NCBI GenBank assembly: GCA_002633005.1
Contig: NMRA01000074.1
Location: forward strand, 294,812-358,811
DNA: 64,000 bases
Reading direction: 5' to 3'
Source of the DNA: Phoronis australis
Lineage: Eukaryota > Animalia > Phoronida
Shown here one piece after another: positions 41,961 through 63,580 of this stretch (within the stretch, counting starts at the first letter, position 1; each line of letters opens with the position of its first letter). The notes beneath the pieces were generated by a model. It saw nothing but the letters and a program-made list of their open reading frames with translations, did not search any database and was not told the DNA's origin. A program made the translations under genes and the position numbers.

Positions 41961-44900
41961 ATGTGCCTTATGTATAAAACCCAACGGCCCCTTTAAGGGC
42001 CCATCAAAACTGAAGAGGTGCTTCAATGATACCTAACAAACTAATAAGTAAAAAGTAGATCATGTTTAATGCATAATTTTGAATAGTAATACGTAATGGC
42101 TTTATATAGTCTCGAGGTTTCACAAAATGAACAGTGTCCTACCGGGCTACATTCAGGATGCAAAATGTCTCAATCACTAAATACATGTCCTTGGACTTGC
42201 TTTATAGATATTCTCAGTATCACAAGTTTTGTACTTTTGTTTCGTTTAGATTAATTCCTGATGAGGAGTTTGCATACAGATACCTCACAGGGCTCAACAC
42301 TAACCGTTGCCCGATTGCCTGTGTGCATGTAGATTTTGCGTCGAGCAAGTGGAATTTGAAGAGTACCTCCCCGATGGGCAAATTAAAAAGCTGACCCCGA
42401 CACAAACCTACGTACTGTCGAAAAAAACCTGGTGACCGTCAAAGAAACTCCCATCTTCGAATGAGCACCATAAGGAAAATTGAACCAGTGTGATGCTGTG
42501 TGCACCGATGATGCCTGTGGTCAAGTCCTTTCAATTCCTTGAACGAGCCCTGTAGTTTCTGAACAAGTTGTCACTTGATACTGCTGATCGTCTGCACTTT
42601 GGCAAAATGCCCTAGGTGTAGTTGCTAAAAAATGACCTCAGGAAGAATCAAAGCAATATGAAAAGAAAAGAGTGCGGGGGAGGGTTCCATCATGGTAAAT
42701 TAGGTTCTCTGGCCTGCGAGACAGTAAACAAGGGATGATGTGTGATTTTTTCCAGCATTTCCCAAGTGCAGCTGGAAGCACCATGTTCGTCGGCAGATGC
42801 AAGTGATACAGGTAAGCGCAAAAGCTAATAAGTGAATGATTGACCACATATTTTGCACACTACACAGCAGTTTTAAAGGTTGGGTATTTATTCGGAGGAA
42901 TTACATGAAGTGACACAACCAGTCCTCTTTAGGAGTGGAATATGTTATGTGTCACCTCATAGAAAACTATTGTAGGTTACATTTGTTGGGCTTAGGAGAC
43001 ATCATTTCCATTATTTGGTGGATGTTACATAATTTTTTATGTGCCTTCAAAGGAAAGAAATACTTATAATGTACCTGTTTGTACCAGTGGTTATTACATC
43101 CAGATAGGTGATATGCTTATTACGCCACTGCAGATATTTGTCAAGTTTATCAAATATTGTCACATGGGAGTTGCAGCCCACAGCAATAACACTTTCTTGG
43201 CATTGGAATGATGAATAGAATAATGCATCCGAGAAAAACTGGTAAAGAATTACAAAACAAATAACACAGGAATCTCCAGTGGCACAAAAACAAAGCAGCA
43301 AATGTGACTGACAGATGTTTACGGCATTGTGCGTAAATACTGTTACTTTGCATTTCTTAATCCTTGTCAAATAAAGAATCACATTGTTAACTTTACATAT
43401 AGTAAAGAACATTTAGAACACCTGATAAATCTTGTTTAAATGTAAACTTAACAATGACATCTGTGTCGAGGAAATCCATTCAAAACAACGTTTCATAGAA
43501 AATTGGGGTATTGTGATTATTTATCAGAGTATACCACAGCTCACTCATGCAATCTACATTTTGGGCATTTGCCAAAATTCACGACTCAGAAATGGGATAT
43601 CTTTTGTTTCTAGAATTTAAGACTAATGCTAATCAAAATATTACAAGTGGTTTTGAGAAGGCCAACAACTTTTAGCTCTTCACATGTGCTATAAAGTTTT
43701 AATGACATTGAAAAAATTGTGACTTTCTAAATGAGGAGTCTATCATCTAGGAGAGTTTATTAATATTTGATTGTCTGAAATTGAAGAGATTTTGAGGTAT
43801 TACCTACTATTAGGATAGTTGATCAGTTGTCTGACCTTTCACAAACATGAGTGTAATATTTTATATACCCCTACCAAAGTTACATTATTATTGAATAGTA
43901 GTCTAAATTTTGACCTTATTCTCATCGAATTTCTCTTAACGTTAGCAAGTTTTTATGTGTCGCTTATCAATATTGTTGATTCTGATTTCCATTGGATTAC
44001 TTATATTACCTCTATGTATATGACTTTCAACCCAGATATAATGCTTCGCGGTTTGTGGGTTTGTCATTATTTCTTTGTATGTTCTGTGTATCCTTCAATA
44101 AATATATATCAACTTAAAAAGTGCATTATTTTTGCATCTTTAATGTTCTGTTTGTTTTTTCAGATTCTCACGGTTTTCTCCAACAGCGTTCTAAGAATAA
44201 ATCAGGTAAGGTTAGCTTTAAGAGTGTTGTTTTAGATGACGAAGAGAAGTGGAAGATATTCCTCGATTGCCATTCTCAAAATGGAGGTCACATGGGCGTC
44301 AACAATACTGTGACCAAAATCTCATCTAGGTTTTATTAGTTAGGTATTAAATCAGATGTGCAAAGATGGATTTCTCAGTGTGATGCGTGTCAACGTTCTG
44401 CAAGGGTGTTAACTGTAGCTCCTGAACTAAAGCCCATCAAAACCCACGAGCCCATGGAGGTCGGTGTGGATCTGATTGGGCCTCTAGCATGCAGTGACTC
44501 AGGTAATCGACACTGATCTTTTTGTCTAAATATGTTGTGGCTTTTGCAATCCCTGAAAAATCTGCATCTTGTGTTTGTAATGAGCTCAAGTCTTTCTTTC
44601 TTACCTATGGTCCCCCTGAGAGAATCCCCTACAGACCAAGGGCGTGAATTTTGCAATGATCTTAATGAAAGAATCGTTTCTCTTTTTAATGTGAAGCATT
44701 TGGTCACTTGCTTACAATCCACAGACCAACGGGCAAGATGAGAGGACCAACCAGACTCTGAAGAAAATTCTGTCCGAAATGTCCAGTGAGAGCAATACCG
44801 ACTGGGACCAGCACATTGAGACGGCTGTGTTTGGCATTAATACAGCTATTCAAAGCTCCACTCATTATTCTCCTTTTTATCTGATGTTCAATCATTCTGC

Positions 44901-45109
44901 GAGGTTTTTTCAGAGATACCACACCGAGAAACTAGTCCTGAGACAGAGGCTGGGGCAGAATCATACCGAGCTGATGGTGTTACTGAAGAAGAGGTTCAAA
45001 ACAGACTTGAGGTGACGGAGAGGGTCAAGGAAATTGTTGACGAAAATGTGTCTAGAGCTCAGATGAAGCAGAAAAAGCACTACGTGCTGAAGAAGTCAAG
45101 GGAAGCAAA

Positions 45110-47052
45110 CAGCATTTTTTCACTCAGGGTCCAAATTTAGATTTTTTATGCTATGCACTCATATTGACAAAATTCCTTCACCTCTGGCAGATTTTTGTAT
45201 GATGATCTTGTTTTAGCATTGGTATTTATGAAATTTACATATTTTAAAGTACAAAAAAATGTTGATCATGGCCAGAGTAATCCTTAATATAGCTGAAAAT
45301 AGCCAGAAATCCACTGTTATATTGTTTCACTGAAATATTGCATGTTTTCAATACACATGGCATTTAATTAAATCAAACATTTAATTGAAATTTGTTTTTT
45401 CATGAACTTAACATGTATTTCTTGTTCTTCTTCAGGTGATTGCAGGTATCTGAATTGTCGAACACAATTTTCAGGCAAATTTACAAAATGTCAATGTTAT
45501 GCAAAACACTTAAATTTGAATATGCTCCTTCTCTTACAGCCATGGTTGAAAAAGAAAAGCATCACTAGTGTTTTGAACTGTTTTTTAATTGTTCATTGTA
45601 TATAGAATTTGATTCAGAAACTACATATTAGTACCAGATGTCCTAGTGATTGGATTCCTCAATCAAACAATATCACCGTCATCTAAGAAAAACTGTGTAT
45701 TCTCCGCAGCCATATCTCAATTCCATTAAATTTTTTCCTTTGATAAAACATAATTGATACTGCAGATTGGGAATCTTGAAGCTGTCTGTGGCCCACAAAA
45801 ATATTAGACCAAGCCCTGGATTTGAATTCATCATTTAGCAAAAAATTTTTCGTATTCTCCGTAGCCCCTGTATTCTCCGTAGCCCCCAATTTATAACTTT
45901 GATTTGTTTGTACATGGTTTGAAAAAACTTGTATGTAGGTGCATTTACTAAGAAAATAGACACAAGCAAACTCTCCAACACACGAAAAATTGCAATTTAT
46001 TTATTTAAGGGTGGTTAATGAGGCAAGTTTAGCCAAAAATTAACCTTTCAACTTTTTCTTTGTATTCTGTGGGTCAAAATTTGAAATCAACTGAAAATTC
46101 TCCTAATTTAATCAGGTGAAATTCAAAAATAACTAGTTGCCATAAACAACCACAATTGAATTACTCCACAGATTAAATGACGCAATGGCTGACACCAAAC
46201 AAGACAAGGAGCGAGAAAGGAAGAGAGAGCAAATGAGGAAGTACAGGGAAAATTTGCAGCAAAACAAAAGGAAATATGCAAGATATAAGCGAAAGGACAG
46301 AGAGCGGAAGAGGAGGGACTACAAGGAATTGGTAAAGACAGTAGACCGGTCAGTGTCACCTTAGTCTCTAAAGCAAGAAAAAAGGCTGGAAGAAAGAATC
46401 ATCAAAAACGGAAAGAAAAGAGCAAAGTCAGGAAAGACTGTGAGAGTGCAAAAGCCATAAAAAAGAGAGGCTGTGAAACGAACCCAAATGTGGAGACTTC
46501 GGATTAAGCTACAGAAAACAGCTGCCACCAAAGATAATGAAACACCTGAACAATCAACAAGCTACATGTCTCGTACAGCAGAATGGAGAGCCATCAAACA
46601 TGCTAGATCCAATCTTCCTAATACTCCAATCAAATGAGCACGAATTGTGGAGAAACTTGCAGGTTAACCTCAGTGTCAACAGCATTTACCAAGTAAAGGT
46701 GCTATTGTGACACCGTTCATTAAGAAGAAACTGGCTCTGGCAGAACATTTTACTCAGTCAATTGCTGATCACATTGAAAAAGTAAAGTTTGATGGGAATT
46801 CCCAAACTATGAAAAAACACTCCTACAAGTTGCTTAAATCTGTGGGGCAAGGAAAAAACAAAACCTATCATCGTCAAAAGCAGAGCCTGAAACGCATGCT
46901 GCAAAGTAATCTTCGCATCAAGAAGAAGTGCATTAGATGGTGGACCTTGGCTACGCACAAGAAATGTCGAGACGAGTTAAATCAAGCAATCAGTCAAAGT
47001 GTTTCGGAGTTTTTTCTACTACCTAGGTTAGTTGTTATGTACCAAACAAGAA
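45110..47052 (+). mobile_element. inserted DNA-transposon fragment with decayed basic ORF (46185-47052) resembling Sola transposase N-terminus
   Basis: KRTQMWRLR..NLPNTPIK*ARIVEKL..KKCRDELNQAISQSVSEFFL..YVPNKK; flanked by 89-bp duplication of host sequence. Confidence 0.5.
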
Positions 47053-47649
47053 AGGGTCAAGGAAATTGTTGACGAACATGTGTCTAGAGCTCAGATGAAG
47101 CAGAAAAAGCACTACGTGCTGAAGAAGTCAAGGGGAGCAAAGTGTTTTGACTTCTCTGTGGGGATGGAAGTATTGGTCATTAAACATGAGGAAACAAGGT
47201 CGGAAGGGGATGTGTCTTGACGACGAATGGAAGGGTCCGTACACCATTGCAGAGCTTGGGGAACAGTCTGCGACTTTGATCGATGGGAATGGTGTACGCA
47301 TGGCCAAAAGGGTACCTGTAGTCCAACTGAAGCCTTATTTGAAGTCATCAGAGCCACGTCAAAGTTCAAAAGACCCTGAAACCACCAACTCCTTTTGTGA
47401 CTCCAAGATTCCTGTGAATCCAGAGGTAGAAAGTCCTTCATCTTTTAACTGCTCTAAGTCATCTGATGCAACAAAAACCTGTTCCTCGTGTGATCTCTGG
47501 TCCAACTTCTGCTTCAGTGCCCACAAAATCAACAGGCGTGGGAAAGCCCCCTATGGATCCATCACACCTCTCCAAACCATCCAGCGCTACCAAGCCCACC
47601 CTCAGCACTCATACTCCATCAGGTGACAAACATCCCAAAACAGGTGATT

Positions 47650-48070
47650 CGGATTGCCCACTTCAGTCCGAAGGCCCAGTGTCTCCACTTATGTCTAATC
47701 TATCTCCATCTTGTGTTGCAGGTTCTACGACAGGTGATGCTGATGATCAACACCAGTCTCCAGCAAAGTCAGTATCTGCAAAACCTGCAGATGAACATTC
47801 AAATGTTTCAGCACTTAAGAACAGAAAAGTACAGCGAGCATGCAGCAAGGCTAATCCAACTTTCATATCTAACCCCTCCAACTTATCTGTACAGTCACCA
47901 TCTGAATGCCCAGTTCCTCCACTTAAGTCTAAACCATCTCTATCTAGTGTCGCAGATTCTGCTATTGGAGATGCTGATTGCCAATACCAGTCTCTAACAA
48001 AGTCAGTATCTGTAAAAATGCACATGAACATTCAACTGTTTCGGCGTGTAAGAGGAGGAAAGTAGAGCAA
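47650..48070 (+). repeat. internal ~170-bp duplication in Ginger linker
   Basis: SEGPVSPLMSNLSPSCVAGS..KSVSAK vs SECPVPPLKSKPSLSSVADS..KSVSVK. Confidence 0.75.
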
Positions 48071-49087
48071 GGGCGTGATAAGGCTGTTCCAACTGTTTTT
48101 CCCATTTGCCAGGTGACGTCATTACCAGCTTTAACATTGGCCGAGAAGCCGACTTTACGAAAAACACTTGACCCGTCATAATCTAAGTGGTTGGATGACC
48201 GGAATTATTGACAGAGCACAATCGATCCTGTCATCTCAGTTTCCCGAATTGTCCAGTTTCCAGTCATGTGTTACACTGACTGATGGTCATTATGGTGGGT
48301 ATATGCCAGAAGAAAATTCCTGCTTTGTACAGATTCTAAACATTAGCAGAAATCACTGGGTCACTTTGGGTAACTTAAGGTTTTGAAAATCACTCAATGC
48401 TGTACAGCTGTATGACAATTTACCAGGTAACAGTGTTCCTCAGATTGTACAAAAACTTGCAGCCGCTGTTTTGTATGATTCAATTGACCCTCAAATTTCT
48501 GTTGAGGTGATGAATATCATGCGACAGAAAGGCTCTGATAACTGTGGCCTGTTTACCATTGCCAACGCATCTGCACTGTGCTTCAGGGATGATCCTCCAC
48601 GCATTGTATGGAAACATAATGAAATACGAAACAAGACATCTGCATAAATGTCTCATTAATGGGAGATTTGAAATGTTTCCACACCACTACAATGCACACA
48701 ATACAAAATTTTCCACCATAAAGTTCTCATTGGATGGATCAATATTTTGTGGGTGCCGTATGCTCAATGACAATAGATGTGAAATAGTGTGGTGTGACAC
48801 CTGCCACGGATAGTTCCACCAGGAATGTGAAAGTCTGGATGAGAATCAGTGAGCACAGGTCACTTCAGATGCATCACCAACATACAGCTGTAAGGGCTGC
48901 ACCTCTGCACCAGCGTAATTGACAGTGCACACTACTGAAAGTACCAACTCGTGCAAATCACCGTTCTTCCAAGCCACCTCAACCTCCTCTACTAATCATA
49001 ATTTAATGGTCTCTGAAGTCCATGTTTCAGATCATGATGCTCTTGTCTGTGGTTAATTCTAGCAGTTTTCATTTTCAGAATTTCATT

Positions 49088-49815: not shown

Positions 49816-50118
49816 TGTAGTAAATGTCGACATCACTCTCAGCTGTGGCGTCTCTATGTTGTGATGTCCTTTTTCTTGCAATGTTGGTCTTGGCCTGGTG
49901 CGACACCTGACGCCAGAAGTGCCCAGCAGAGGTCACACTGTCATCACGTGACCAGTCACCTCTCAAGACCATGTGACAAGATCGTCTGGGCCTTCTGGAG
50001 TTTGCGGCCGTCCTGTGCGGACGTGATGTAAGTACACTCTAGACTAAACTCTTTCACCGTGTTCAACAGGCCGAACCTGCTTGACTGTAGCAGTAGCTGC
50101 AGCCATACTAATACAACA
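49816..50118 (+). repeat. 5' LTR of element 1 (303 bp)
   Basis: TGTAGTA...TACAACA followed by PBS; first 171 bp repeated at 54258. Confidence 0.88.
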
Positions 50119-50120
50119 TT

Positions 50121-50134
50121 TGGCATAGTTGGCA
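50121..50134 (+). promoter_or_regulatory. primer-binding site, tRNA-Ser-like
   Basis: TGGCATAGTTGGCA vs TGGCGTAGTCGGCA (two CpG-type transitions), 2 nt after LTR. Confidence 0.7.
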
Positions 50135-50458
50135 CCTATTTCCCGATGTTGGAGCAGCGTGCGTGTCTTTCTGTGGTGGCGGGAAATAAGTTTTCATAAC
50201 TTGTTTTCTCGTGGCCATTTTGACAGTCACGTGCGTCACTGCTTTTGCAGTGCCTGAGTTCAGGTTAACTAGAGTATAGGCTACCAAAGCTTTTGTGGTT
50301 AGTGTAGGAATTGTATATAGGTATTTAATATTGGTTAAAATTGTACATAGTATAGTTTGTTATTCATAATTTTGTACATTAGTTAAATTGTAGAACTTTT
50401 CTAGGAATTCTAGAATAGGTCACATGACCACGTTGTTGCAAAGCCGAGTGTGTTCAAT

Positions 50459-51906
50459 ATGTCTTTTCAAGACAGGGTTCCAATTAACTTGTCTTTCCCA
50501 AGAGTTATTTAAGCTCTCGGGCATGACAGAAGATATTGCCCAAACCCTTCTGGCTTTTCGGCAAAGTCAGCCGATAACCCAGAGTAATGTTAACCACATC
50601 CATTCCGGATGGAGGTTGATGAGGAGTGCTATTTCTGGCATTGATTTCACGCAATATGGTGATGTTCAGTCCCGAGATACCTCTCCTCTGGGTAGTCCTG
50701 TACGTACCCGTTTGCCCCAGGACTTAAATGGCATTGCCCAGGCCTGTGACGGGTTAAACAAATCACTTGTTACAGTGAGAAGTACTCCACTAACCAGGAT
50801 GCTTCTTCGTCTGTGTCTGCCCCAGGTTCTGGTAGCCAAACGGCTGGTCCATCTACCTACACTCGTCCCTATAGTTTAAGGCCAAATGCCCCAAGTTAGT
50901 GTTTCTAGCGGAAAAAGGCAAGTGGGACGATTTTTTTTGGAAATTCCAGGGCTTAGCCAAGGACAATTTATGGTCCGAAGACAAGTGCGTCTCTGAACTA
51001 GGAATGTGTTTGGACGATGTTGCCTTACATTTTTTCCTTAATTTCATGAGAACGAACCCAGACTCTGGTTTCGATGATGTGGTTGCACACATGTCAGAAC
51101 ATTTTTCATCAACTGACTGCACCCAGGTCTTGCACCTTGAATTCCAATACGCCGAGCAGAAGCCGGGAGAATCTACTGAGAACTGGGCATGTAGGTTGAA
51201 CAGCTTATTTTTTTAACAGCCTTCCCGAACCCTTCGGAGCAAGAAAAAGTAGAAACTTGTATTCCGTTTCTCCCTTGGGTTACGAGATAAGGTTGTAGGT
51301 ACGCAGGTGATGAACTCATTCCCTTTGTGCCTAGCTGAGGTAGAGTCTAAAGCTGCATGGTTCGCAACGACTCACCGATTCATGGCGAATCAAAACCGTC
51401 AGTCTGTTTGGTTCGAGGGCTTACCATCGCGTAATGACGAAGCTTCTATCAACCTACTTTCGCAGCACAAAAAACATGCACCTAAATTCTCTCCAATAGC
51501 GTCCTCTCATTCAAACTCTGCAGTTGAGTCTAGGCTGCATGCTTTAGAGTCTCAGATGGCTAAGGTCAATTCTGAAATAGGAGGTCTTAAAGAAGACAAT
51601 GCCCTGATACATCGAGAACTTAAGAGTATGTTCCAGACTATGAGTTCGAATTTTAGAGGCATTACCTCAGATTTGTCGAGGGTAATACAATTGCTGGATT
51701 CTAATCCAAAACCATCTAGATCCCCTCCACTACCTAAGTCCCCCCAAACTTCCCCACAGAGACCTTCAGTAATGTGTTTTAAGTGTGGTAAGTTTGGTCA
51801 CTACCAGTCTGTGTGCCGTAGCCCGCAGTCTGCTAGAATTCGTCACACATCCTTTGGTGAGAAGTCCGATGATTTAAACGAGTTGGGACTGGACGATCAG
51901 GTCTAA
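50459..51906 (+). pseudogene. gag: gag of element 1 (frameshifted): HhH-like N-terminus, capsid-like domain, coiled coil, CCHC knuckle
   Basis: WDDFFWKFQGLA..W..LGMCL..AL.F; AEQKPGESTENWACRL; CFKCGKFGHYQSVC. Confidence 0.85.
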
Positions 51907-51915
51907 CACCAGTCC
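51873..51915 (+). promoter_or_regulatory. -1 ribosomal frameshift signal (T TTA AAC + hairpin)
   Basis: slippery heptamer in gag phase, 6-nt spacer, stem GGACTGG/CCAGTCC; -1 frame open ~70 codons. Confidence 0.7.
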
Positions 51916-52151
51916 AATCTCGTGACGCCACCAGTAGGGTATCCTCAGACTGCCCCACTAAAAAATTCAGTCCCACGGATGGTTTATTAGGTTCATTAAA
52001 TAAAAACATCAAAAGCCTATCGACTAATCTCTTAGACTGTTTTAAGAAGGGAGTTTTCCACTTCTTCTCGAAGTATTTCTGTGCACGATGAGGTGATTGA
52101 ATTACCCATTACTGATACTGATGTGATTGTAAAGCTGTTTCTAGTACCCAG

Positions 52152-53350
52152 GTGGTTGCTAATTCTGAGTCATTAGATATCGTGCACACCCTGGTTCCGG
52201 ATTCCATTTCAGGGGGGTCAAAGGTGCCCCACAACCCTGTCGTTTTGCGAGATCCACCTCCTGAGTTTGTAGACGCTCCTATGGAAACTATTAATATTCA
52301 GGAGGCATTTTCTGGTAACACCCTACACCAACAGGCTGGCCGTCTGCTTCACTGGAGGCAGAAGGTCACCCTTCCACAAAAGGTGAGGGATGCTGGTTCG
52401 CCATACCCTCGGATGTCGTGTGTGGCAAAAGCCCGCCAGCCACCTGGCCTGCCTCTAAAGGGTCAACGTTCATCTGGGGCTTCGCCGTCCGCATCCAAAG
52501 CTAAATCAGGACAAGTCCCTGATTTGGCTATAAATGCCCACTTCCATTTGGATCGCTTGTCAGTATCCTTGGCTCAGCGTCATATCACTGAGACTAGGAT
52601 GCTGACGATCGACCAAATGCTCACTGCCCAGTTGCCACGGGTTTCTCAAAGACCTGTAAGGTTGGTCGGCGGGATTGCAGTTTTCTGCGATGTGGAAAAC
52701 TGGAAGTACGTTGAGGCTTCCCGTTTACCACATGGGTGGAAAGCTGTGGTGGGGAACCACCCCAATGGGTTGGAACAACGAATCCCGGTGTTTTAGAGCG
52801 TCTCCCCCAGCTACTAAAGGAGCCCTTTGGAGCTGGCTTAGGCGAGGTCGGTCTGGAGGCCCGGGATGACTTGGCCACCCAAAAAGAGGCTCTGGAAGAA
52901 ATGGTGCGGATCTTTGCGGAGGTTCGGGCCAACTCCCCCAACCTCAAAAACAAAGTCGTGGTGATCCACATTCGTAGCTCCTCCGACAATCCACGCTTCT
53001 TTGTCTTTGACCTTCTGAAGCGCCACTGTGGTGCAGACTTGGGTTTGCATCTCCATTGTTTTGGAGGTGCGCCCGAGGATGTACTCCGGTGGACGGGGTT
53101 CTTTAGAAACTGCCACTTCGGCTTCGCCGGTCATGTGAACCAGTTTCTAAAGTACCAAAACAAGGGGTTACAAGAGGTTCCGCTGAATCGACTCCTCCTG
53201 GAGTCTGATTTACCGCACCTCGGCAAGCCCCAATGGCGCCCCAATACCTGGGGGGAAGTGGCTGTGGAGGTGGCGCAGCGTTCTCGTCGTTCCCTGCGTG
53301 ACATCCTGGCTGCTTCCACCAGGAATGCCAGGCGGCTTTACCATCTCTAA
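52152..53350 (+). pseudogene. TatD-family nuclease ORF of element 1 (domain ~52524-53350; one frameshift ~52764)
   Basis: NAHFHLD, VGNHP, GLGEVGLE, VVIHIR, HLHCFGG, FGFAG, PLNRLLLESDLPHL, EVAVEVA..STRNARRLY. Confidence 0.9.
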
Positions 53351-53627
53351 CAAAATTGTTAGAAGTGGTTTAGCATCCCGGTGTGCCTGGGTCATAACCT
53401 ATGCCCCAGGTTTTCTCCTAGTCCCTTGGGTAACTGCCCGTTATTGTAAACTCTGAGGCTGACTACGGTCTCTGGATTTGTGCCTTACCCTTGGTCCTAG
53501 AAGAATTGTGGTGTCCATTTAAGTAGTATAAGTAATTAAGTAGCATACTGGTCCATTATTTTTATATAGTAGAGTTTATTTGTTAAAACTATATAGTATA
53601 TTTTTGTTATAAGTTATGTTTCCATAC

Positions 53628-53631
<4 letters not shown>

Positions 53632-53662
<31 letters not shown>
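53632..53662. repeat. (TA)n microsatellite
   Basis: seen directly. Confidence 0.95.
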
Positions 53663-53666
<4 letters not shown>

Positions 53667-54243
53667 TATTTATATATTCAAGACTATACTTTCTACAGCA
53701 TTACGTATTAGTTGATGCTATATAGTTTATTAACTTAAGTTTTCCATAGTCTACGTATGTTATGAAAGACTATATCATTTTACATTTCACTATATCACTA
53801 CTAAAGCATTACTGAATACTCAACTTATGGCCAGTATGCTTTTCATTGTTCAGTTTTTTCTTAACTTATTAAAAAAAAATGTATATATACTCTTACCAGG
53901 TCATCACCAACAAACGGAGTGTTGTCATAATTTCCATGCCCCATGGTACTTGTGTTAGTGGGGCATATTTTTTTTTTTGTCTTTCAATCATCATGTTCCA
54001 ATATTCCGTTGGATATATGCTATGACTGAGTCTCTTTAGTTTTTGTGTTTTTTTTGGTAGGGGGGAGAATAGTTATATTTAGTAATAATCAGAAATTGGT
54101 ACTTTACTAGAGTCATTCCACATCACTTTAGTTATGGGGTCTAAGTTCTTGTTACTGATTTTTTTAGCCAAGGGTTTATGTTTAGATGTTGGGAATGACG
54201 TTCGCCATTTGCTATAAGGCTTAGGGCTCCATTCCTTTTCTTT

Positions 54244-54428
54244 AGGGAAGGGAGGAATGTAGTAAATGTCGACGTCAGTCTCAGCTGTGGCGCCTCTATG
54301 TTGTGATGTCCTTTTCATTGCAATGTTGGTCTTGGCTTGGTGCGACACCTGACACCAGAAGTGCCCAGCAGAGGTCACACTGCCATCACGTGACCAGTCA
54401 CCTCTCAAGACCATGTAACAAGATCGTC
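54244..54428 (+). repeat. PPT (agggaagggaggaa) and truncated 3' LTR of element 1 (54258-54428)
   Basis: about 9 differences in 171 bp vs 5' LTR (hand count). Confidence 0.9.
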
Positions 54429-54430
54429 AT

Positions 54431-56044
54431 AGGCGTACTGCTTATACTCATAGAAATGAGGAAGGGATAGACAGTAGGGACTGGATAACCTTAAGCACGT
54501 GGGGTAGACTGGAGGATGGTAAGGTACCTTATGGTAATTTAAGGGGTCTGGAAAGTCCAGTAGGGTCACCTGTTCAGCGGGGTAGGATTCGGTCTTGTGA
54601 AGAAGAAAGAAGTCGTCTCTCAGACGATGATAGCTCTATGGGAATTTCACCCGGAAGGAGGGGGCTTCGGTTAAGATACTCGCGAGGAGGTGAGGGGGCC
54701 CGTAGGAAGAGTCCTGAGGTGAAATTTGCCAATCGTTTTGTAGTCTCGCCAAAACGGGAGGATAATAGAGGTATTGATTATAGAGTGAGACGTAGTTCAC
54801 CCAGAGATTACTCACCTAGGAGAGAATATTACAGGAGTCCGCCGAGAAGGTGGCGTTATGTAATGGATAGGGACGAGTATGATGGGGGACATAATCCGTG
54901 GTGGTATAGGCATACTCGGGAGGAGGGCCTAGATAGGGTGGAGCGTAGAGAGTACGATAGGGATTATGATGAGGATAGATATTCTCCGCGACGCCGTTAC
55001 TATGAGCCACGGGATGACTTTAGAGAGAGAAGGGGAGGAAATAGAGGCTATAATGCCAGGGGATATAGTACACAGGTACCACCAAAAAACATAAAGTTTG
55101 ATGGGACTGGGAATTATAGAATTTTCAAGCAACTGTTTAGGAGGTGGACCGGAGCTAGAAGAATGACAGCGGGTGAGGCTTTAGACTCTTTTATGTATTG
55201 TCTAGAAGGGAAACCTTTGGATTTTGTGGGGGAACTGGGAGAACAAGTAACCCTGAATGAAGTTCTGGAGGTGTTAGACAGTTATTACGGGGATGAAGGG
55301 AGAGCATCAACAGCTAGTCAAATATTAGGAACAGCTACTCAGAGGACTGGAGAATCCATTAGGGAATGGGCCATGAGAGTAATGACTCTGTCTAGACAAG
55401 CGTTTGGGGAATTTGGTTCGGAAGAGTTAGTACATCGGGAAGCAATAACTCAGTTTTGTGTAGGTGCATTAGATGCAGAGGCAGGGGAATTTGTGCTCTT
55501 GAAGAAACCCCGGGTATTGGAGGAAGCCAAATCTATGATGGAGGATAAGCATAGGACACGGGAGAGAGTAAGACAGAAACCTGGTCGGGGGGCTAATGTG
55601 CATTCAGCTTACTTAGTGAAGGAAGATTTGCCCTTCAGGGAACAGGTTGAGGATAATTCTTATCGGATAGCTTCGGTAACAGAGGCTAAATCCAGCTCTG
55701 AGAAAATGTTAGCTCAGTTAATTAAGGCCGTAACTGAACAGACTCAGGCGATACAAAAACTTGTGCTGAAATCTCCGGGGTCGTTCAGGGGGGATAAAGA
55801 TAAGCCGTTGGTTCAGAATGGACAGAATCAAAGTAGATGGGGGTCTAAGAAAGCTTCTTCAGGAAATCAGCATAGAACAAATGAGGGGGATCGGAAGAGA
55901 GATACCTCGAGAGAGTCGAGGAAATGTTACAGGTGCCAAAAGGAGGGTCATTTTGCACGGAACTGTCCTGATAAGATTAAGAAGGAAAATCTACCGGAAA
56001 ACTCCAGAGGGACCACTGTAGGAGCCGCGCAGAAGTCCCAGTAG
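54431..56044 (+). CDS. gag: gag of element 2 (5'-truncated; RS-rich region, capsid, CCHC)
   Basis: frame open from the junction; PKNIKFDGTGNY, CLEGK.LDF, QRTGESIREWA.RV, QFCVG, CYRCQKEGHFARNC. Confidence 0.9.
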   Translation, partial: RRTAYTHRNEEGIDSRDWITLSTWGRLEDGKVPYGNLRGLESPVGSPVQRGRIRSCEEERSRLSDDDSSMGISPGRRGLRLRYSRGGEGARRKSPEVKFANRFVVSPKREDNRGIDYRVRRSSPRDYSPRREYYRSPPRRWRYVMDRDEYDGGHNPWWYRHTREEGLDRVERREYDRDYDEDRYSPRRRYYEPRDDFRERRGGNRGYNARGYSTQVPPKNIKFDGTGNYRIFKQLFRRWTGARRMTAGEALDSFMYCLEGKPLDFVGELGEQVTLNEVLEVLDSYYGDEGRASTASQILGTATQRTGESIREWAMRVMTLSRQAFGEFGSEELVHREAITQFCVGALDAEAGEFVLLKKPRVLEEAKSMMEDKHRTRERVRQKPGRGANVHSAYLVKEDLPFREQVEDNSYRIASVTEAKSSSEKMLAQLIKAVTEQTQAIQKLVLKSPGSFRGDKDKPLVQNGQNQSRWGSKKASSGNQHRTNEGDRKRDTSRESRKCYRCQKEGHFARNCPDKIKKENLPENSRGTTVGAAQKSQ

Positions 56045-56768
56045 AATCAGAAGGCTCAGAATCAGATCAGGAACTTGAAATGGATCAGAGTAGGCAATCT
56101 GATATACCTGAAACGTTTTTGATGTCAGTAGTGCAGCATTGTAAGGACATACAGCAGGGTACTGAAACGGTTCTAGATAATGACACAGTATGTGAGAACT
56201 TAGCCAGTTGTGTTGTAACCGACATGGGTAGTAGGCGTGGGTGTAATCGGTTTGCTACTCCGTTATTGGTTAACGGTGAATTTATACAGGCTATTGTAGA
56301 CTCAGGAGCTCAAACCACGGCAATATCTCGAAAATGGGCTACTAAGTTAAAGTTAGATAACTTAACATCAGGGAAAGTAGTGAAGTTGCAGACAGCTAAA
56401 GCTGGGGAGGCAATGAATGCCGAGGTATTAGATAAGGTGGTAAGGATAACTTTGGGCGAACGAGACTATGAAGCTGAATTGTGGATAATGGATCTGTCTG
56501 AGGATATGCTGCTCGGACAGGATTTCATGAGTGAATATTCTATGTATTTAGATGGGGAATCTCATGAAATGGTAGTTAAGGAAATGGGGGAGCGAATTCC
56601 AGTTTCCTGTTATAACCCTTATTGTCAAGTAGGACCAAGGGTGGCACTGTTAAGGGCCATGGATGAAGTAACCATAGAGCCAAGAACAGGACGAAATATT
56701 GTAACCAAAGCTTCATGTAGGTTACGGGAATTTATAGTTGAAGACGAACTATGTAATCAGTTACAGGT
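55996..56768 (+). CDS. pol: pol N-terminus / aspartic protease, reached by -1 frameshift at G GAA AAC
   Basis: -1 frame open from 55996 into AIVDSGAQ...MLLGQDF; GGGAC/GTCCC hairpin follows slippery site. Confidence 0.85.
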
Positions 56769-56866
56769 NAGTTAAAGTTAGATAACTTACCATCAGGGAA
56801 AGTAGTAAAGTTGCAGACAGCTAAAGCTGGGGAGGCAATAAATGCTGAGGTATTAGATAAGGTGGT

Positions 56867-57514
56867 GCAGCAGATGTATGACAAGGCAGTGCAGGAATTG
56901 ACGGGATATGAAGCAGCCCGATTAAAAAGCATGTTAATTGAGTTCAGGGATGTGTTTGCTGAAACAGAATTTGATTTAGGGACATTTTCAGCGGTAGAAC
57001 ACTGCATTGAGTTGGAGGCTGGAACGCGTCCAGTGAAACAAAAGATGCGGAGAACTCCATTAGGCTTTGAGGCTGAAGAGTGGAAACAATTGCAGGCCAT
57101 GTTAAATGCAGGGATCATAGAGCTATCCTTGTCACCATGGGCCAGTAATCCAGTTTTAATACGTAAGGCAGATAGGAAATGCCGTTATTGTGTAGATTTC
57201 CGGGCATTGAATGATAAAACTGTGAAAGATTCATGGCCTTTACCTTTAGTATCTGATTGTTTTGATTTACTTCAGGGTAATCAGTTCTTTTCGAAGTTGG
57301 ATGCGAATAGTGCGTATTATCAGATTCCAATTAAGGAACAGGATAGAGTAAAGACCGCATTTATAACTAGGTATGGTCTGTTTCAATTCCGGAGGATGGC
57401 AATGGGATTGAGTGGGGCACCATCAAGTTATTCACGGGCTATCGGTCTAGTCTTGAAAGGCATAAATTGGAATACGGCATTAGCATTCTTAGATGATATT
57501 GTGGTACTTGGGAG
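56867..57514 (+). CDS. pol: reverse transcriptase (partial, runs into gap 57515-57847)
   Basis: SPWASNPVLI, RYCVDFRALN, FSKLDANSAYYQI, KTAFIT, AFLDD. Confidence 0.95.
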
Positions 57515-57847
57515 NNNNNNNNNNNNNNNNNNNNNNNNNNNNNNNNNNNNNNNNNNNNNNNNNNNNNNNNNNNNNNNNNNNNNNNNNNNNNNNNNNNNNN
57601 NNNNNNNNNNNNNNNNNNNNNNNNNNNNNNNNNNNNNNNNNNNNNNNNNNNNNNNNNNNNNNNNNNNNNNNNNNNNNNNNNNNNNNNNNNNNNNNNNNNN
57701 NNNNNNNNNNNNNNNNNNNNNNNNNNNNNNNNNNNNNNNNNNNNNNNNNNNNNNNNNNNNNNNNNNNNNNNNNNNNNNNNNNNNNNNNNNNNNNNNNNNN
57801 NNNNNNNNNNNNNNNNNNNNNNNNNNNNNNNNNNNNNNNNNNNNNNN

Positions 57848-58358
57848 AAGAAGGCAAAGCTCTGGGAAGATCAAGCCAAGGCCATGGGGAAGACTGTCGA
57901 GCACCTTCAAGGGTGGTTCAAGTCCCTCCGAGACACTCACACCCGTCTCCACAAGAAGAAGAGCGGTGACGGCGCCCCGGAACTGACAGAGAGGGAGCAG
58001 TGGGTGAAGGCAAACTTCAGCTTCCTCAAGAGTGTGGTCCGCCATCATGCTGAACCCGTCAACAGTGTAAGTATAACAAATATTAATATTAATATTTATT
58101 TATATTAATTTTATTGTGATTACAAAGCATTGAATGTGCCTTGTATTTTTGCCTTGTATTTTAACAATCAACTGTCATAATTGCAGGTGAAGGTGACCAT
58201 TGCAGCACACAGCGGGGACCTCGAGGCTGCCTGTGCAGACATCGTGGTTGATGACGAGAGCACGCCCTCCACTGTCCCCTCCTCATCCTCACAGCGCAAG
58301 GGCAAGCGTGGCCAGGACGATGACCAGTTGCTGCAGTCACTCCAGAAGAGGGTGCTCC
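57848..58358 (+). mobile_element. foreign fragment: spliced MADF/Myb-like gene, probably Harbinger ORF1
   Basis: KAKLWEDQAKAMGKTVEHLQGWFKSLRDTHTRL..KSGDG..LTEREQWV..FSFL; intron 58067-58186; GC-rich codons unlike pol. Confidence 0.65.
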
Positions 58359-59924
58359 AATCAGGGAGGAATTAGTGCAGCAAGACAATCAGACCTAACA
58401 GACCAACAAGGGGGAACTATGTTGGAATTGGTGGAGAAACAACGTAATGATCCTGACTTAAGATTTATAATATCCTGGCTTGACGAGGGGGAGTTTCCTA
58501 GTCAGGAGGAATTGTTTAGGTCTTCTGAGAAGGCTAAAGCTTATTGGTTAAATAAGGAAAGTTTTAGCTTTCTAGAAGATGGTATTTTAGGAATGCGGGA
58601 TCATAAGAGCTCTCAAAACAAGTTGATTGTAGTTCCACGGGAGTTGGAGGAAGAAATCATGAGATTGAACCATGATTTGCCTTTGGCGGGACACCAGGAA
58701 ATGGAACGAACACGATCTAAAATTAGGCTAAAGTATTATTGGAGGGGAATGAGAGAGCGCATTCGAAAGTATGTTGAAGGTTGCATGGTGTGTAACCAAA
58801 ACAAGGGAAGAGTTCGAAAAGCTCGTACTCCAATGGTAAAATACCAAGCCGGAGCACCAATGGAAAGAGTTCACATAGACTTTTTGGGACCATTACCTAG
58901 AACGTCAAGGAGGAATGAGCATGTATTAGTGGCGGTAGACCAGTTCACTAAGTGGGTAGAATGCATTCCTTTATCAGACCAAACGGCGGAAACCACCGCT
59001 ACGGCAATGGTCGATAATATTTTTTCAAGGTATGGGTGTCCGCTTCAGCTGTTCTCTGATAGGGGCTCAAATTTTCAGAGTGCAGTGTTTAAGGAAGAAT
59101 GTAAGTTCCTCAGAATTCATCAGACACATACAACTGCCTATAGGGCAAATGGACAGGCGGAAAGGGTGAATAGGTCAATGATGAATGCAGTTCGCTGTTT
59201 TGTGGGGGAATTTCAGTGTGATTGGGATTTGTATGTACCAATGATTGCAGGAGCACTGAGAGCATGTGTGAATCGTTCGACAGGTTTAACGCCTAATATG
59301 ATGGTGTTGGGTAGAGAAGTAAATACTCCAGCGGAAGTGGCTTTCAGGGTAAGTCCGGGGGTAGGAGTCTTGGAGCCGAAAAGGTATGCTGATGAGTTGG
59401 TGGATAAGATGACACGAGCTCATGAACTTGCTCGGGAAAATTTAGGTACAGCTCAGCTTAGGGCTAAAATTGATTACGACATCAGGGTTAATCAGTTTGG
59501 TTATGCAGAGGGAGATGTTGTAAGAGTGTTTCGGGATGCTGTACCACAGGGAATGAGTAGGAAACTGTATCCACCATGGTCAGAACCGGCGATAATAGTA
59601 GCTAAGATATCGGATCGCTTATTTAAGGTAAGGTTTAAGCGATCGGTTGGCACGTATAACCATGATAAGCTGAAGAGATGTAAGGATAGGGTATGTCCTG
59701 AGTGGATTCAACGGTTAAAGGGTGATCCACTGCTATTAGCTGCTGAAAAGGTCAAAGCATTGTCTACGGGGGTACAATTGTATTGCATATGTAATCAACC
59801 TGATGATGGCTCTACAATGGTACAATGTGATGACTGTAAACAATGGTTTCATGCATTGTGTTTTGGGTTGAACCAAGAGCAGGCTATGGCTCTTCCTGAA
59901 TTCAAATGTTCATTATGTGAATGA
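58359..59924 (+). CDS. pol: integrase (HHCC-DDE) with C-terminal PHD finger
   Basis: HDLPLAGH..CMVC, HIDFLGP, SDRGSNF, NGQAERVN; YCICNQPDD..VQCDDCKQWFHALC..FKCSLC. Confidence 0.93.
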   Translation, partial: NQGGISAARQSDLTDQQGGTMLELVEKQRNDPDLRFIISWLDEGEFPSQEELFRSSEKAKAYWLNKESFSFLEDGILGMRDHKSSQNKLIVVPRELEEEIMRLNHDLPLAGHQEMERTRSKIRLKYYWRGMRERIRKYVEGCMVCNQNKGRVRKARTPMVKYQAGAPMERVHIDFLGPLPRTSRRNEHVLVAVDQFTKWVECIPLSDQTAETTATAMVDNIFSRYGCPLQLFSDRGSNFQSAVFKEECKFLRIHQTHTTAYRANGQAERVNRSMMNAVRCFVGEFQCDWDLYVPMIAGALRACVNRSTGLTPNMMVLGREVNTPAEVAFRVSPGVGVLEPKRYADELVDKMTRAHELARENLGTAQLRAKIDYDIRVNQFGYAEGDVVRVFRDAVPQGMSRKLYPPWSEPAIIVAKISDRLFKVRFKRSVGTYNHDKLKRCKDRVCPEWIQRLKGDPLLLAAEKVKALSTGVQLYCICNQPDDGSTMVQCDDCKQWFHALCFGLNQEQAMALPEFKCSLCE

Positions 59925-60163
59925 TTCACGGTGAGAACGGGATGAGTTGGGAAGAGGGATACTACTCGATGAACATATTTAGGTAAACGCCTGGGAAAGG
60001 TGTGGCTAAAACTCTTCGTCTATAAATTCAGCTTTCTCTGATTATTAAGCATGCTTGTTCACCGGAGGAGATGTTTTCTACAAATACACGAATAAGCGAA
60101 AAGCAGAAGACATTCCTTTCATCAAAATGACTGTTAAGCTGCTATTCTATTGGTTATTGTAGA

Positions 60164-61332
60164 ATGTCCAATGCACGCAGAGAGCAGTTGTGGCGCGGGG
60201 TAGCGGACAGCTTGATGGAGCTGCTGAAGGGTGACGCGGGTGCTTCAGGTAGTCAGCGCGAGGAGACGCCGCGACGGGGAAGGTCGCCCACTCGCCGGAG
60301 GAGCAGGTCACCCCGGGAGAGAGGATCCTCCAGAAGATCGAGGGAGAGATCGGGCCGAAGGCAACAACGGGGAGGTCGGCGCTGGGAGAAAACCCAGAAG
60401 AAGGACCGCAGCCAGGGGGGACCGTCGGGGAGTCATATGAAAGATCCGGCGAGGGGATGTCCTCACTGCCTTCAGGACCCCAGTGACATGGCGAAACATG
60501 TCCTGGATTGCCATTTACCTCGAGGGATCCTGCTGGGAACAGGACCGGGGGACCAGGAGCAGTCCCGGAAAAGAATGTGGTTCCTCCACGACGTGGCCAA
60601 GGTTGTGGATGAGAAGCCCAAAGATTTGATGAGACGGGTCGAAGGGTGCCCGTTCTTATCTAACCTGGAAACGCCAATGGAAGAGGAAGTTCAGCTGATC
60701 TGCCAGCACGTGGGTTTGGAGAGGCCGAGCAGTCTATCTTTGGGGAACGTGCAGAGCTTGCCTCTTCTACTGCACCCAGAGGTTTTGGAGACACTTCTGC
60801 GGTCATTCACACGGTCCCAGCTCATTAGGGTGGCTGGGAGAAGGTGGCCAGCAGGGAAATGCATCCCATACAGGTGGTTAGGAGAGTGTATGGCGGAGCA
60901 GCCCATGGAGACGTCCTACGCTGAGGTAGTTCGTGGGAAGCCGGCGTCAAAGGGTGCGTCGCGGATGAGTTCGGCAACGAGCTCATCAGGGGTTCGTCCC
61001 CTTTCCCAAGGGAAGGCTACCGGGAGCGGGGAAGCGACGGCGGTGTCCAAGGAATCTTCAGGGGCCTCTTCGTCGAGTAACTTGTCAGGGACGACGGAGA
61101 GGGGATCAAGGGAATCGCCTCATCAAAGGTTGATGAAGACCATGCGAAGTTCCCAAGGGGGTGAGTTGAACTTTCCTGATAGTAGGGATGATAGTGGTAA
61201 AGTTCTGAAATCATCTTTCTTACAGGTGGAACCTCAGGTACCAGTAGAGGTAGCGGATGCACACTTTCACTTAGATAGGGTGATTCAAAGGCATCGGATG
61301 TCATCAGAGGAAAGTGCTCTAGATGTGTATAG
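60164..61332 (+). CDS. ORF3 N-part: RS-rich, C2H2-like finger, Ser-rich linker, start of TatD domain
   Basis: CPHC-x10-H-x4-H; VADAHFHLDR; cut by N at 61333. Confidence 0.8.
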
Positions 61333-61333
61333 N

Positions 61334-62032
61334 GTTAATTAAGGCCGTAACTGAACAGACTCAGGCGATACAAAAACTTGTGCTGAAATCTCCGGGGTCG
61401 TTCAGGGGGATAAAGATAAGCCGTTGGTTCAGAATGGACAGAATCAAAGTAGATGGTCTAAGAAAGCTTCTTCAGGAAATCAGCTTAGAACAAATGAGGG
61501 TGATCGGAAGAGAGATACCTCGAGAGAGTCGAGGAAATGTTACAGGTGTCAAAAGGAGGGTCATTTTGCACGGAACTGTCCTGATAAGATGAAGAAGGAA
61601 AATCTACCGGAAAACTCCAGAGGGACCACTGTAGGAGCCGCGCAGAAGTCCCAGTAGAATCGGAAGGCTCAGAATCAGATCAAGAATTCCAGGTGTGGAA
61701 ATATGTCATGACTTTCAACGAGGGGTACCATTAGAATCCTGCCCTGTGGAGGCTGTTCAAAATGCACAAAACATCATCGGGAATGGGCAAAATTCTATAG
61801 TACAGTGGATGATGTGGTTCCTTTAGGTGCTAAGGTGAAAACAACTACGGAGGATCCAGTGGATATAATCGCATCTAGTTCTTTATGGAACAGGGATATG
61901 GAAGATAGTGAAACCTGGGGTATACAAGTAGTAACTAGGCGACAGGAGAAAATAGGTCCCGGGGGAGAGGTTGCCTTATCTAATCAGGGAGGAATTAGTG
62001 CAGCAAGACAATCAGACCGGACAGACCAATAA
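61334..62032 (+). other. misplaced pieces of element 2: duplicate gag end (61334-~61683) and RNaseH-integrase linker (~61680-62040)
   Basis: copy of 55717-56072; SRIPGVEIC..LPCGGCSKC..W..VDDVVPL, overlapping 58359-58417 at its end. Confidence 0.8.
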
Positions 62033-62405
62033 GGGGGAAATTCTATGGGAAATAGCTAGGGATTGTTTGAATAAAGCTACACCCATTCAATTGCATTCTT
62101 TCCGTGGGGGTCCTCAAGTGGTGGAAAAATGGTTAAAGACATTTCCTAACACCTACTTCTCAGTTTCAGGAGTTGGACTAGGTCACATTAGGGGGGACCG
62201 AGCTCGCGGGATACGAGCTATTCCGTCAAAGCGACTGTTGGTGGAAACGGATGCACCTTATAATCATCCAAGTGGCACTGGAATGCATCAGTCCCATTCC
62301 GTAGTAATAGGGGAATGGTGCAAGCAAATAGCGGAAGTCCGGGGAGTTAGCCTGGGTGAAATTTGCAGACTGTCGCGGGATAATCTAGCGTCCTTTATTC
62401 ATTAA
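62033..62405 (+). CDS. ORF3 C-part: C-terminal half of TatD domain
   Basis: IQLHSFRGG, W..FPNTYFSVSG, IPSKRLLVETDAPY, IAEVRGVS..SRDN. Confidence 0.85.
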
Positions 62406-62685
62406 GAAAGGGAGAAAAAGTAAGAGTAAGGGATTATGTATGGCATGGGGAGAATCACTGCTAGTAGTATTGAATTTGGATGTTAATGTCTTTATTCAAG
62501 TATTGTTTCCTGTGCTTTTTCATCAGACTCGGGGAGTCAAAGGGCTCTTTTCAGGCGATCCATAAGGGTATAATTGGGAAAAGTATGGGTATTTAGTCGT
62601 GATTCTTGTTGTTTGTCCATACATGTGTTACAGGTATGGGATGGCACCACTCCACAAGAGAAGGGGATGCATCATACCTTACATA

Positions 62686-63059: not shown

Positions 63060-63231
63060 TGGCTGAGTAAGAGAATCTTTTATGGGATGATTGGCTAGAT
63101 TATCTAGGGAAAATGTCATAGGGATAGTCCGGCTGAGGTTAATTTTTAATAAGTTTTAAACAACTGGGTTGGTACCGCAATTCCGATTAACATTACCAGG
63201 GAAAGCTCCAAAAAATAGAATGGGGAGGAAA

Positions 63232-63580
63232 TGTAGTGAGCCAGTGCGTATGTTACGTGAGGTTTAATTGGATAGTCAGGTTCGCGGGCTTCTCTGCCGT
63301 CTTGGCTGGGATTGGAGAATAGATGGAACCTGCTGGGTAACCTGATGTAACGATGACGTCACGACCTCGTGGTTCACTCGTCCTTCGCACTTGAAACTCG
63401 AGAGAGACAAGACGAACTCTGAAAAGACTCCAACGCATATCTACTATCGACTCTAGAGACTTTTCCATAACCAGTTAGGTAAGCTGTCTTATAGTTCTAG
63501 TGTATACTTGGGAACCCAATGGTCGTCCGCCTAAGCATAAAACCGGCTTGTTGTCGTACTCACCCAATCATTCCACTTCA
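63232..63580 (+). repeat. 3' LTR of element 2
   Basis: follows PPT agaatggggaggaaa; TGTAGTG...CACTTCA; no second copy to confirm the right end. Confidence 0.65.

Follow-up and report, generated by a model that had tools for sequence, protein, structure and literature searches.

A probable TatD nuclease cargo and an undescribed Cys2His2/LLHW domain in ORF3 of a Ty3/gypsy retrotransposon of Phoronis australis

Background

A stretch of 64,000 nt from the genome of the phoronid Phoronis australis (contig NMRA01000074.1, positions 294,812–358,811; hereafter named the window) contains an LTR retrotransposon, element 2, in which a third open reading frame (ORF3) follows pol at the position of env. 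Two parts of this frame are present in the window, one on each side of an assembly join. The locus therefore raises the question of whether both parts belong to one gene, what this gene encodes and how its message is formed. According to the passages of PMC5408684 drawn on here, the ORF3s of LTR elements are typically made from spliced messages. An initial annotation, made from the sequence alone, had read the interval 60140–62405 as one protein with an Arg/Ser-rich N-terminus, a C2H2 finger and a TatD domain, expressed by splicing directly before its ATG. Here we follow up that reading with profile and structure searches and with RNA reads.

Organization of element 2

A Pfam scan and ORF reading over the 64-kb window gave the order gag-PR-RT-IN-PHD-ORF3-PPT-LTR for element 2, all of it on the forward strand. 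The gag gene (54419–56044) encodes a PNMA-like capsid region and a CCHC knuckle. It is followed by the first part of pol (55981–57514), which comprises the protease (PF13975) and the first part of the reverse transcriptase (PF00078) and is crossed by a single-N join at 56769. The integrase part of pol (58356–59924; H2C2 and rve in Pfam, with a C-terminal PHD finger) ends with the stop codon at 59922–59924. This succession of gag with a CCHC knuckle, protease, reverse transcriptase and integrase, as matched in Pfam, is that of the Ty3/gypsy elements. Downstream of ORF3 there is a polypurine tract (63222–63231) and a 3' LTR (63232–63500, the 3' end being approximate), which begins with TGTAGT and contains a donor-like AG/GTAAGC at 63479. 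No second copy of this LTR was found in the 64-kb window; gag adjoins the truncated 3' LTR of another element (element 1), and the 5' LTR and leader of element 2 lie outside the window.

The rest of the reverse transcriptase and the RNase H are absent from the window, and the interval where they are expected (57515–58355) consists of a gap of 333 N (57515–57847) followed by a foreign fragment, which resembles a MADF domain with a weak E-value of 0.038. This MADF/Myb-SANT-like fragment inside pol (57848–58355) includes an intron-like GT..AG stretch (58068–58188), and diverged copies of it are transcribed in two of the RNA runs described below (X1 and X2). Single-N joins are present in the window at 10243, 56769, 61333 and 62872. 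The N gap and the joins, including 26359–30695, are flanked by near-identical duplications, as is typical of scaffold joins, and structure across them is unreliable; from these duplications we infer that the joins are contig boundaries. Two further features of the window lie upstream of both elements. Fragments resembling by eye an integrase, a Ulp1-type protease and a PHD finger (44695–48900) form a set that is presumably the one found in Ginger-type transposons, and a tRNA-like match (22951–23026), whose anticodon is not determinable, is possibly a SINE or a pseudogene.

ORF3 is a non-env third gene

As initially placed, ORF3 comes after pol. Its ATG, at 60164, is separated from the end of the pol stop (59924) by a spacer (59925–60163) that includes five upstream ATGs. 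The N-part of ORF3 stays open for 389 codons up to the join (60164–61332, forward strand). It contains an Arg/Ser-rich basic stretch at residues 26–95 (60239–60448; 46% Arg plus Ser, net charge +17) and a Ser-rich low-complexity linker (60899–61198) followed by the start of TatD, so that the three segments initially described (the RS-rich N-terminus, the linker and TatD) are all present. The earlier reading that ORF3 has neither a signal peptide nor a transmembrane helix also holds. The highest hydropathy values over 19 residues are 0.8 and 0.6, from which we conclude that there is no transmembrane helix; the leader is not hydrophobic and no env family of Pfam is matched. The signal peptide and membrane anchor of an env glycoprotein are thus missing from the parts present, and the lost middle corresponds to TatD in the relatives. 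This indicates that ORF3 is a non-env third gene.

A conserved Cys2His2/LLHW domain

A domain of ~130 residues (60455–60850, forward strand) precedes the linker. The Cys/His motif reported for this region is present, but its spacing is CPHC-x9-H-x4-H and not x10. The two Cys and two His are invariant in all eight aligned rows, four of which are close sea-urchin relatives, and this conservation points to a four-ligand Cys2His2 site. The LLHW motif of the domain reads LLHP in the window copy.

A word-indexed protein search with the ORF3 N-part recovered none of 7992 candidates. An exhaustive search of 1.84 billion proteins with the 389-aa N-part gave three matches, with E-values from 3e-5 to 3e-4; two of these proteins have a C-terminal TatD. 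A profile of the shared domain identified nine proteins among the 7992 scored candidates, seven of which also carry TatD; for the six domain proteins outside the profile inputs the fusion was present in five. Those with a species name belong to Ostrea, Saccostrea and Lytechinus. When the window row was omitted from the profile, the window domain was still recovered, with an iE of 1.7e-14. The nine proteins show three arrangements: the domain alone (no TatD in two of nine relatives), a single domain with TatD, and two domains with a TatD in which ligands have been lost.

No Pfam family was matched by the window row of the domain, and the best E-value, 0.36, was seen in one of the four rows scanned. 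Structure prediction, which had been proposed as a check, was run from eight sequences and gave an all-helical model with no strands (pLDDT 75.6, pTM 0.73) and no clear fold match. Foldseek returned no PDB or BFVD match at E<=0.001, a result that does not establish a new fold, and VIA found no Z>=5 among 48,161 chains; its best match, a death-like domain (Z 4.2, rmsd 3.9, 81 aligned), is within the noise for helical bundles. The classical C2H2 finger has 12 residues between the second Cys and the first His. A finger of that type was ruled out here by the spacing of 9, the lack of a C2H2 match in Pfam and the strandless model, and the "C2H2 finger" of the initial annotation, taken in the classical sense, is thus backed neither by Pfam nor by the predicted structure. 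Its conserved ligands suggest that the domain is likely a zinc-binding module of a non-classical type. It is an undescribed domain, with no earlier Pfam family or clear PDB counterpart.

The TatD domain

The ORF3 N-part ends 25 residues into TatD (61256–61332), past the class II HxH motif DAHFH. The C-part (62040–62405, forward strand) consists of the last 121 TatD residues, with a PF01026 match of 57.4 bits against a cut-off of 27 (E=2e-15). DAHFH (HxH), LHSF (beta-6 His) and ETD (Asp) are all intact. The distance between the HxH and the beta-6 His is 157–164 residues in four relatives versus 41 in the window; hence, ~116–123 residues of TatD are missing at 61333, and these hold GxHP, GExG (beta-4 Glu) and the beta-5 His. 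The loss of the middle of the domain at this join had been recognized before: GExG is indeed gone, together with GxHP and the beta-5 His, but the HxH pair is still there. Of the six metal ligands, four fall in the parts of TatD that the window contains, and these four are intact. All six are kept in P0001, P0029, P0030, L001 and element 1.

The HxH motif marks class II TatDs in the parts of PMC10085689 cited here, and its presence assigns the ORF3 TatD to this class. In the same source the class II enzymes are two-metal 3'-exonucleases or AP endonucleases, the 3'-exonuclease acting on ssDNA, and PMC10711561 describes degradation of the RNA of R-loops by TATDN2. The ORF3 TatD likely works as a two-metal 3'-5' exonuclease. 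When the TatD family profile was compared with known structures, YcfH was the best match (E 6.5e-24), followed by TATDN3 (2e-9) and TATDN1 (6e-6). ORF3 shares with the class II TatDs YcfH, TATDN2 and TATDN3 the PF01026 and TIGR00010 matches and the HxH, LHSF and ETD motifs. Unlike the cellular class II TatDs, it is retrotransposon-encoded, and it scores under every NCBIfam cut-off.

A tree of the TatD C-part with 14 rows separated 11 animal element-type rows from 3 bacterial rows with a split of 98/93; these three were the only comparison rows (no cellular animal TatD or TATDN2), and P0026, L002, L004 and the TatD-less proteins were excluded. The window rows are on long branches, and their placement is unsure. 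Identity to the TatD parts of Lytechinus is ~34–36%. Scans of viral contigs revealed no relative, whether the query was the integrase, the TatD C-part or an alignment of 3 rows, and neither did a first metagenome scan.

Oyster-type proteins, element 1 and other relatives

Five oyster-type relatives from Ostrea edulis and Saccostrea echinata (P0004/P0018, P0005, P0025, P0026 and P0027) have the same changed TatD ligands: several metal ligands are missing, including changes at the beta-4 Glu and the beta-5 His, which indicates that the TatD fold can persist without catalysis. Four of the five hold the domain twice, their branches are short, and they cluster with Magallana gigas models labelled VPS13D. 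The oyster-type proteins are possibly a domesticated pseudo-nuclease.

Element 1 (49816–54428 of the window) consists of gag and a frameshifted TatD with all six ligands, and has no pol. Its 3' LTR is cut at 54428, where the gag of element 2 begins, and it carries a donor-like GTAAGT at 50028 and one strong acceptor-like AG at 52211. The initial annotation had likened the LLLHP segment of ORF3 to an RLLHW of element 1 and considered that both elements express the same cargo. RLLHW does occur in element 1, and the lone LLHWR motif near 52345 may be what is left of the domain; the domain profile has no match in element 1. Both elements do carry TatD, but their C-parts are only 28% identical and element 1 has no detectable domain, so that "the same cargo" holds only loosely.

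Among the other relatives, L001 has the domain and a TatD with six ligands; L001, L003 and L004 represent another family in animal-like records. L003 shows a degraded gag-like ORF upstream of the TatD C-part and no pol, like element 1. The P0001 cluster (12 members) combines an Arg/Ser stretch, a coiled coil and an intact TatD, and the Cys2His2/LLHW domain is absent. The N-terminal modules of the TatD cargo thus appear to be swappable.

The two parts of ORF3 are of one gene type

After the N at 61333, which is likely a contig join, the window continues with a duplicate of the gag C-terminus (61334–61686; 97% identical to 55717–56073) and a piece of pol from upstream of the integrase (61687–62039), and only then with the TatD C-part. 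The duplicate and the pol piece in front of the C-part indicate that the second contig derives from an internally deleted sister copy, of which 61334–62039 lies outside ORF3. The single span 60140–62405 proposed for ORF3 therefore has to be revised in this stretch, but the N- and C-parts that it connected are those of one gene type.

RNA reads were taken from three raw runs (X1–X3) with the same species label and from one study, of which 18–19% each was read. Across the three runs, 24 reads continue past 61332 into sequence other than the gag duplicate, outside the examined stretch; 18 reads, also from three runs, have loose ends before 62034–62036, and eight join the end of the pol piece at 62039 to the integrase region at 58420. 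The reads thus leave the window at both edges of the break. No read or contig bridging the two halves was found. As a separate observation, five reads (X2 2, X3 3) join the pol linker at 61962 to the middle of the integrase at 59145, so that a further deleted copy seems to be transcribed.

Each half of ORF3 is linked inside its own contig to gag or pol of the family of element 2. The domain and TatD lie side by side in two of five fetched loci. No pol was found near the homologues in any of four animal-like loci of 1.5–6.1 kb each, so linkage to pol was seen only in the window. From the homologues that carry both parts in one chain, the adjoining loci and the reads leaving at the break, we conclude that the N- and C-parts are one gene, as had been assumed.

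Codon positions of the differences between the reads and the window were then counted, from positions only and for the best-supported 40 rows per table (147 and 25 more rows exist). For the ORF3 N-part, third codon positions account for 16 of the 20 listed differences (p=2.5e-5) and for 9 of the 11 that fall in codons 1–60, the earliest being in codon 2. This excess from codon 2 onwards supports the ATG and the frame and indicates that ORF3 is under purifying selection from its ATG. No bias was seen in the integrase used as control (10 of 24 listed) or in the TatD C-part (3 of 9), which fits decaying window copies, and the evidence of selection is therefore limited here to the N-part.

Expression of ORF3

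The AG that had been noted directly before the ATG lies at 60161–60162, at the end of a T-rich tract with TAG (60141–60162, forward strand), a candidate splice acceptor from which a spliced exon would begin at 60163, 1 nt before ATG 60164. The tract has 13 pyrimidines in 20 positions and a T at -3, and the next AG is >18 nt upstream. These three criteria, which are crude and were chosen post hoc after the site had been seen, are satisfied by 171 of the 4079 AGs in the window (4.2%) and, among the 16 AGs in 59925–60170, only by this one, which makes it the best acceptor-like site in the spacer; in 20,000 shuffles such a site fell within 6 nt of the ATG in 0.8% (p ~0.008). Splicing at 60161–60162 would drop the five upstream ATGs, and the TAG is also the stop of an upstream ORF of 11 codons. 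Both elements have a donor-like GTAAG in the LTR, 212 nt from its start in element 1 and 247 nt from its start in element 2.

The predicted splicing into 60163 was not seen in the RNA. No joint or loose end at 60163 was present among the rows listed for the three runs (all but 3 and 1 rows of the two tables), which are shallow here (depth ~0–6). Six reads of X2 cover 60169, with a depth of 3.8 before the site and 5.6 after it; X1 and X3 barely cover the region. A discontinuity was observed at 59987, where 12 reads (X1 8, X2 4) start fitting the window; their upstream part lies outside 57848–62680, and they carry alleles of their own. The letters of the window before 59987 are TAA, and the nearest AG ends at 59982. 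The majority of the reads at the beginning of the spacer do not run on from the pol end of the window, as indicated by variant alleles at 59994 (in 8 of 10 reads and in 5 of 6) and by the loose ends at 59987 (8 and 4). With the letters of the window copy, an RNA joined at 59987 would include three upstream ORFs, all short. The site may be another acceptor in expressed copies or a breakpoint in the DNA.

An internal promoter at the TATAAA of 60021 was also considered. This sequence is not kept in the reads (9 of 10 differ at 60022 and 11 of 12 at 60026), and such a promoter is therefore disfavoured.

Reads from both halves of ORF3 were found in the RNA runs, so both are transcribed. First mates are nearly all on the forward strand over pol, the spacer, ORF3 and the 3' UTR. 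With the commonest stranded protocol, first mates on this strand correspond to antisense RNA. As strand control, the MADF-like piece, which is coded on the forward strand, was inspected: its first mates are also on the forward strand, with no splice joint and with a dip in depth over the intron-like stretch.

Discussion

ORF3 is the third gene of a Ty3/gypsy element, split in this draft assembly, and we consider it probable that it represents an active, separately expressed nuclease cargo. The basic Arg/Ser stretch and the Cys2His2/LLHW domain would bring TatD to nucleic acid. The ORF3 message would be separate from that of gag-pol and probably arises by splicing, with a donor close to the element's 5' end and an acceptor that might be either the AG at 60161–60162 or the junction at 59987. 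Its product, a soluble basic protein, could act on products of reverse transcription, trimming or clearing single-stranded cDNA or, in RNA:DNA hybrids, the RNA strand; this would finish the intermediates or hide them from host surveillance. A role in reverse transcription is suggested because in the rotifer elements Juno and Vesta this slot is occupied by a 3'-5' exonuclease of unrelated fold, as if by convergence; by this analogy we only tentatively propose single-stranded cDNA or hybrid RNA as the substrate, a choice that falls short of an even chance.

Other explanations concern how the message arises. An env-type subgenomic RNA spliced exactly into the AG at 60161–60162, with removal of the five upstream ATGs, agrees with the rank of this site among the spacer AGs, its position 1 nt before the ATG, the shuffle result and the donor-like GTAAG in the LTRs of both elements. 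This exact site is nevertheless rather doubtful, since no junction at 60163 is listed in three runs and no step in depth is seen there, although a minor or tissue-specific isoform is compatible with the depth of ~0–6 in the 18–19% of the runs read. We place a similarly limited credence in 59987 as a DNA difference, either because of an insertion or because a derivative that is non-autonomous and carries ORF3 has its breakpoint there, in which case ORF3 RNA would come from derivative copies and not from splicing. The own alleles of the reads breaking at 59987, the lack of an AG before the site, the internally deleted copies (61334–62405, and the 61962–59145 joint of five reads) and element 1, with gag and TatD and no pol, argue for it, but an insertion in a full-length copy predicts pol-side loose ends at 59986, and there are none among the rows listed. 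Finally, the reads might be antisense transcripts of silencing loci and thus uninformative on ORF3 expression. First mates lie almost solely on the forward strand and the library protocol is unspecified; the same direction in the MADF-like piece, with its intron-like dip, fits a sense-first library and argues weakly against this possibility, which we likewise regard with some scepticism.

The function may also differ from that proposed. In an unlikely alternative, ORF3 is a counter-silencing or binding factor in which the N-terminal domain does the work, while TatD either has small-RNA precursors of the host as its target or only binds nucleic acid. The occurrence of the domain without TatD in two of nine relatives, and its doubling in oyster-type proteins with a ligand-poor TatD, point in this direction, and dead DEDD nucleases serve piRNA biogenesis according to the passages cited from Rodriguez et al. 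(PMC5408684). On the other side, no ligand within the window's parts of TatD has changed, and the full set of six is retained in five relatives. That ORF3 is a passenger fragment of a host gene or a chimera of the assembly, and does nothing for the element, is highly improbable. Joins do interrupt the region, and its halves lie on different contigs, but each half is tied to pol or gag of the family, the third-position bias is present and the same fusion occurs in bivalves and sea urchins, so that this explanation is largely refuted. The nuclease cargo reading can be extended to an old Gypsy clade of marine invertebrates with a counter-defence nuclease, in which a zinc-binding helical domain would aim TatD, made from its own spliced message, at reverse transcription intermediates or silencing RNAs, and from which oysters would have domesticated a dead, domain-duplicated host version, possibly acting against the same elements; as a whole, this scenario is speculative and quite unlikely.

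The analysis defines a new protein domain, and natural intact relatives allow an assay of the nuclease. It also suggests that some gene models of bivalves and sea urchins listed as 'uncharacterized' or TatD-like may be transposon cargo. A literature search of titles and abstracts, with Repbase, subscription journals and supplements outside its scope, gave no report of TatD cargo in retrotransposons, and none was found in the portions of PMC6962438 and PMC13524379 available to us.

The slot of an enzymatic non-env ORF3 is itself already known, and the new part is the TatD cargo together with the domain. In the sections of PMC5408684 considered here, the LTR retrotransposons Juno and Vesta of bdelloid rotifers carry as ORF3 a DEDDy 3'-5' exonuclease whose activity and purpose are undemonstrated. 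Element 2 resembles them in being Ty3/gypsy-like, with an enzymatic non-env ORF3 after pol, no transmembrane helix and kept catalytic residues (four of six ligands seen here), and shares with them, in the same sections, a proposed auxiliary role in replication and a presumed spliced message. It differs from Juno and Vesta in its TatD TIM barrel in place of the DEDDy fold, its long N-terminal extension with the undescribed domain, and its relatives in bivalves and sea urchins. With the env of errantiviruses, as presented in parts of PMC13524379 and PMC5408684, ORF3 has in common its location between pol and the 3' LTR, an ATG of its own and an acceptor-like site. Unlike that env, it has no transmembrane helix, hydrophobic leader or env match in Pfam, it encodes a nuclease and not a fusogen, and no splice junction into its acceptor-like site was seen in the three shallow RNA runs. 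If kept under selection, the ORF3 TatD would be the second unrelated 3'-5' nuclease fold in the env slot, and two such folds would suggest that replication of LTR elements or their evasion of the host poses a common need that is otherwise unmet.
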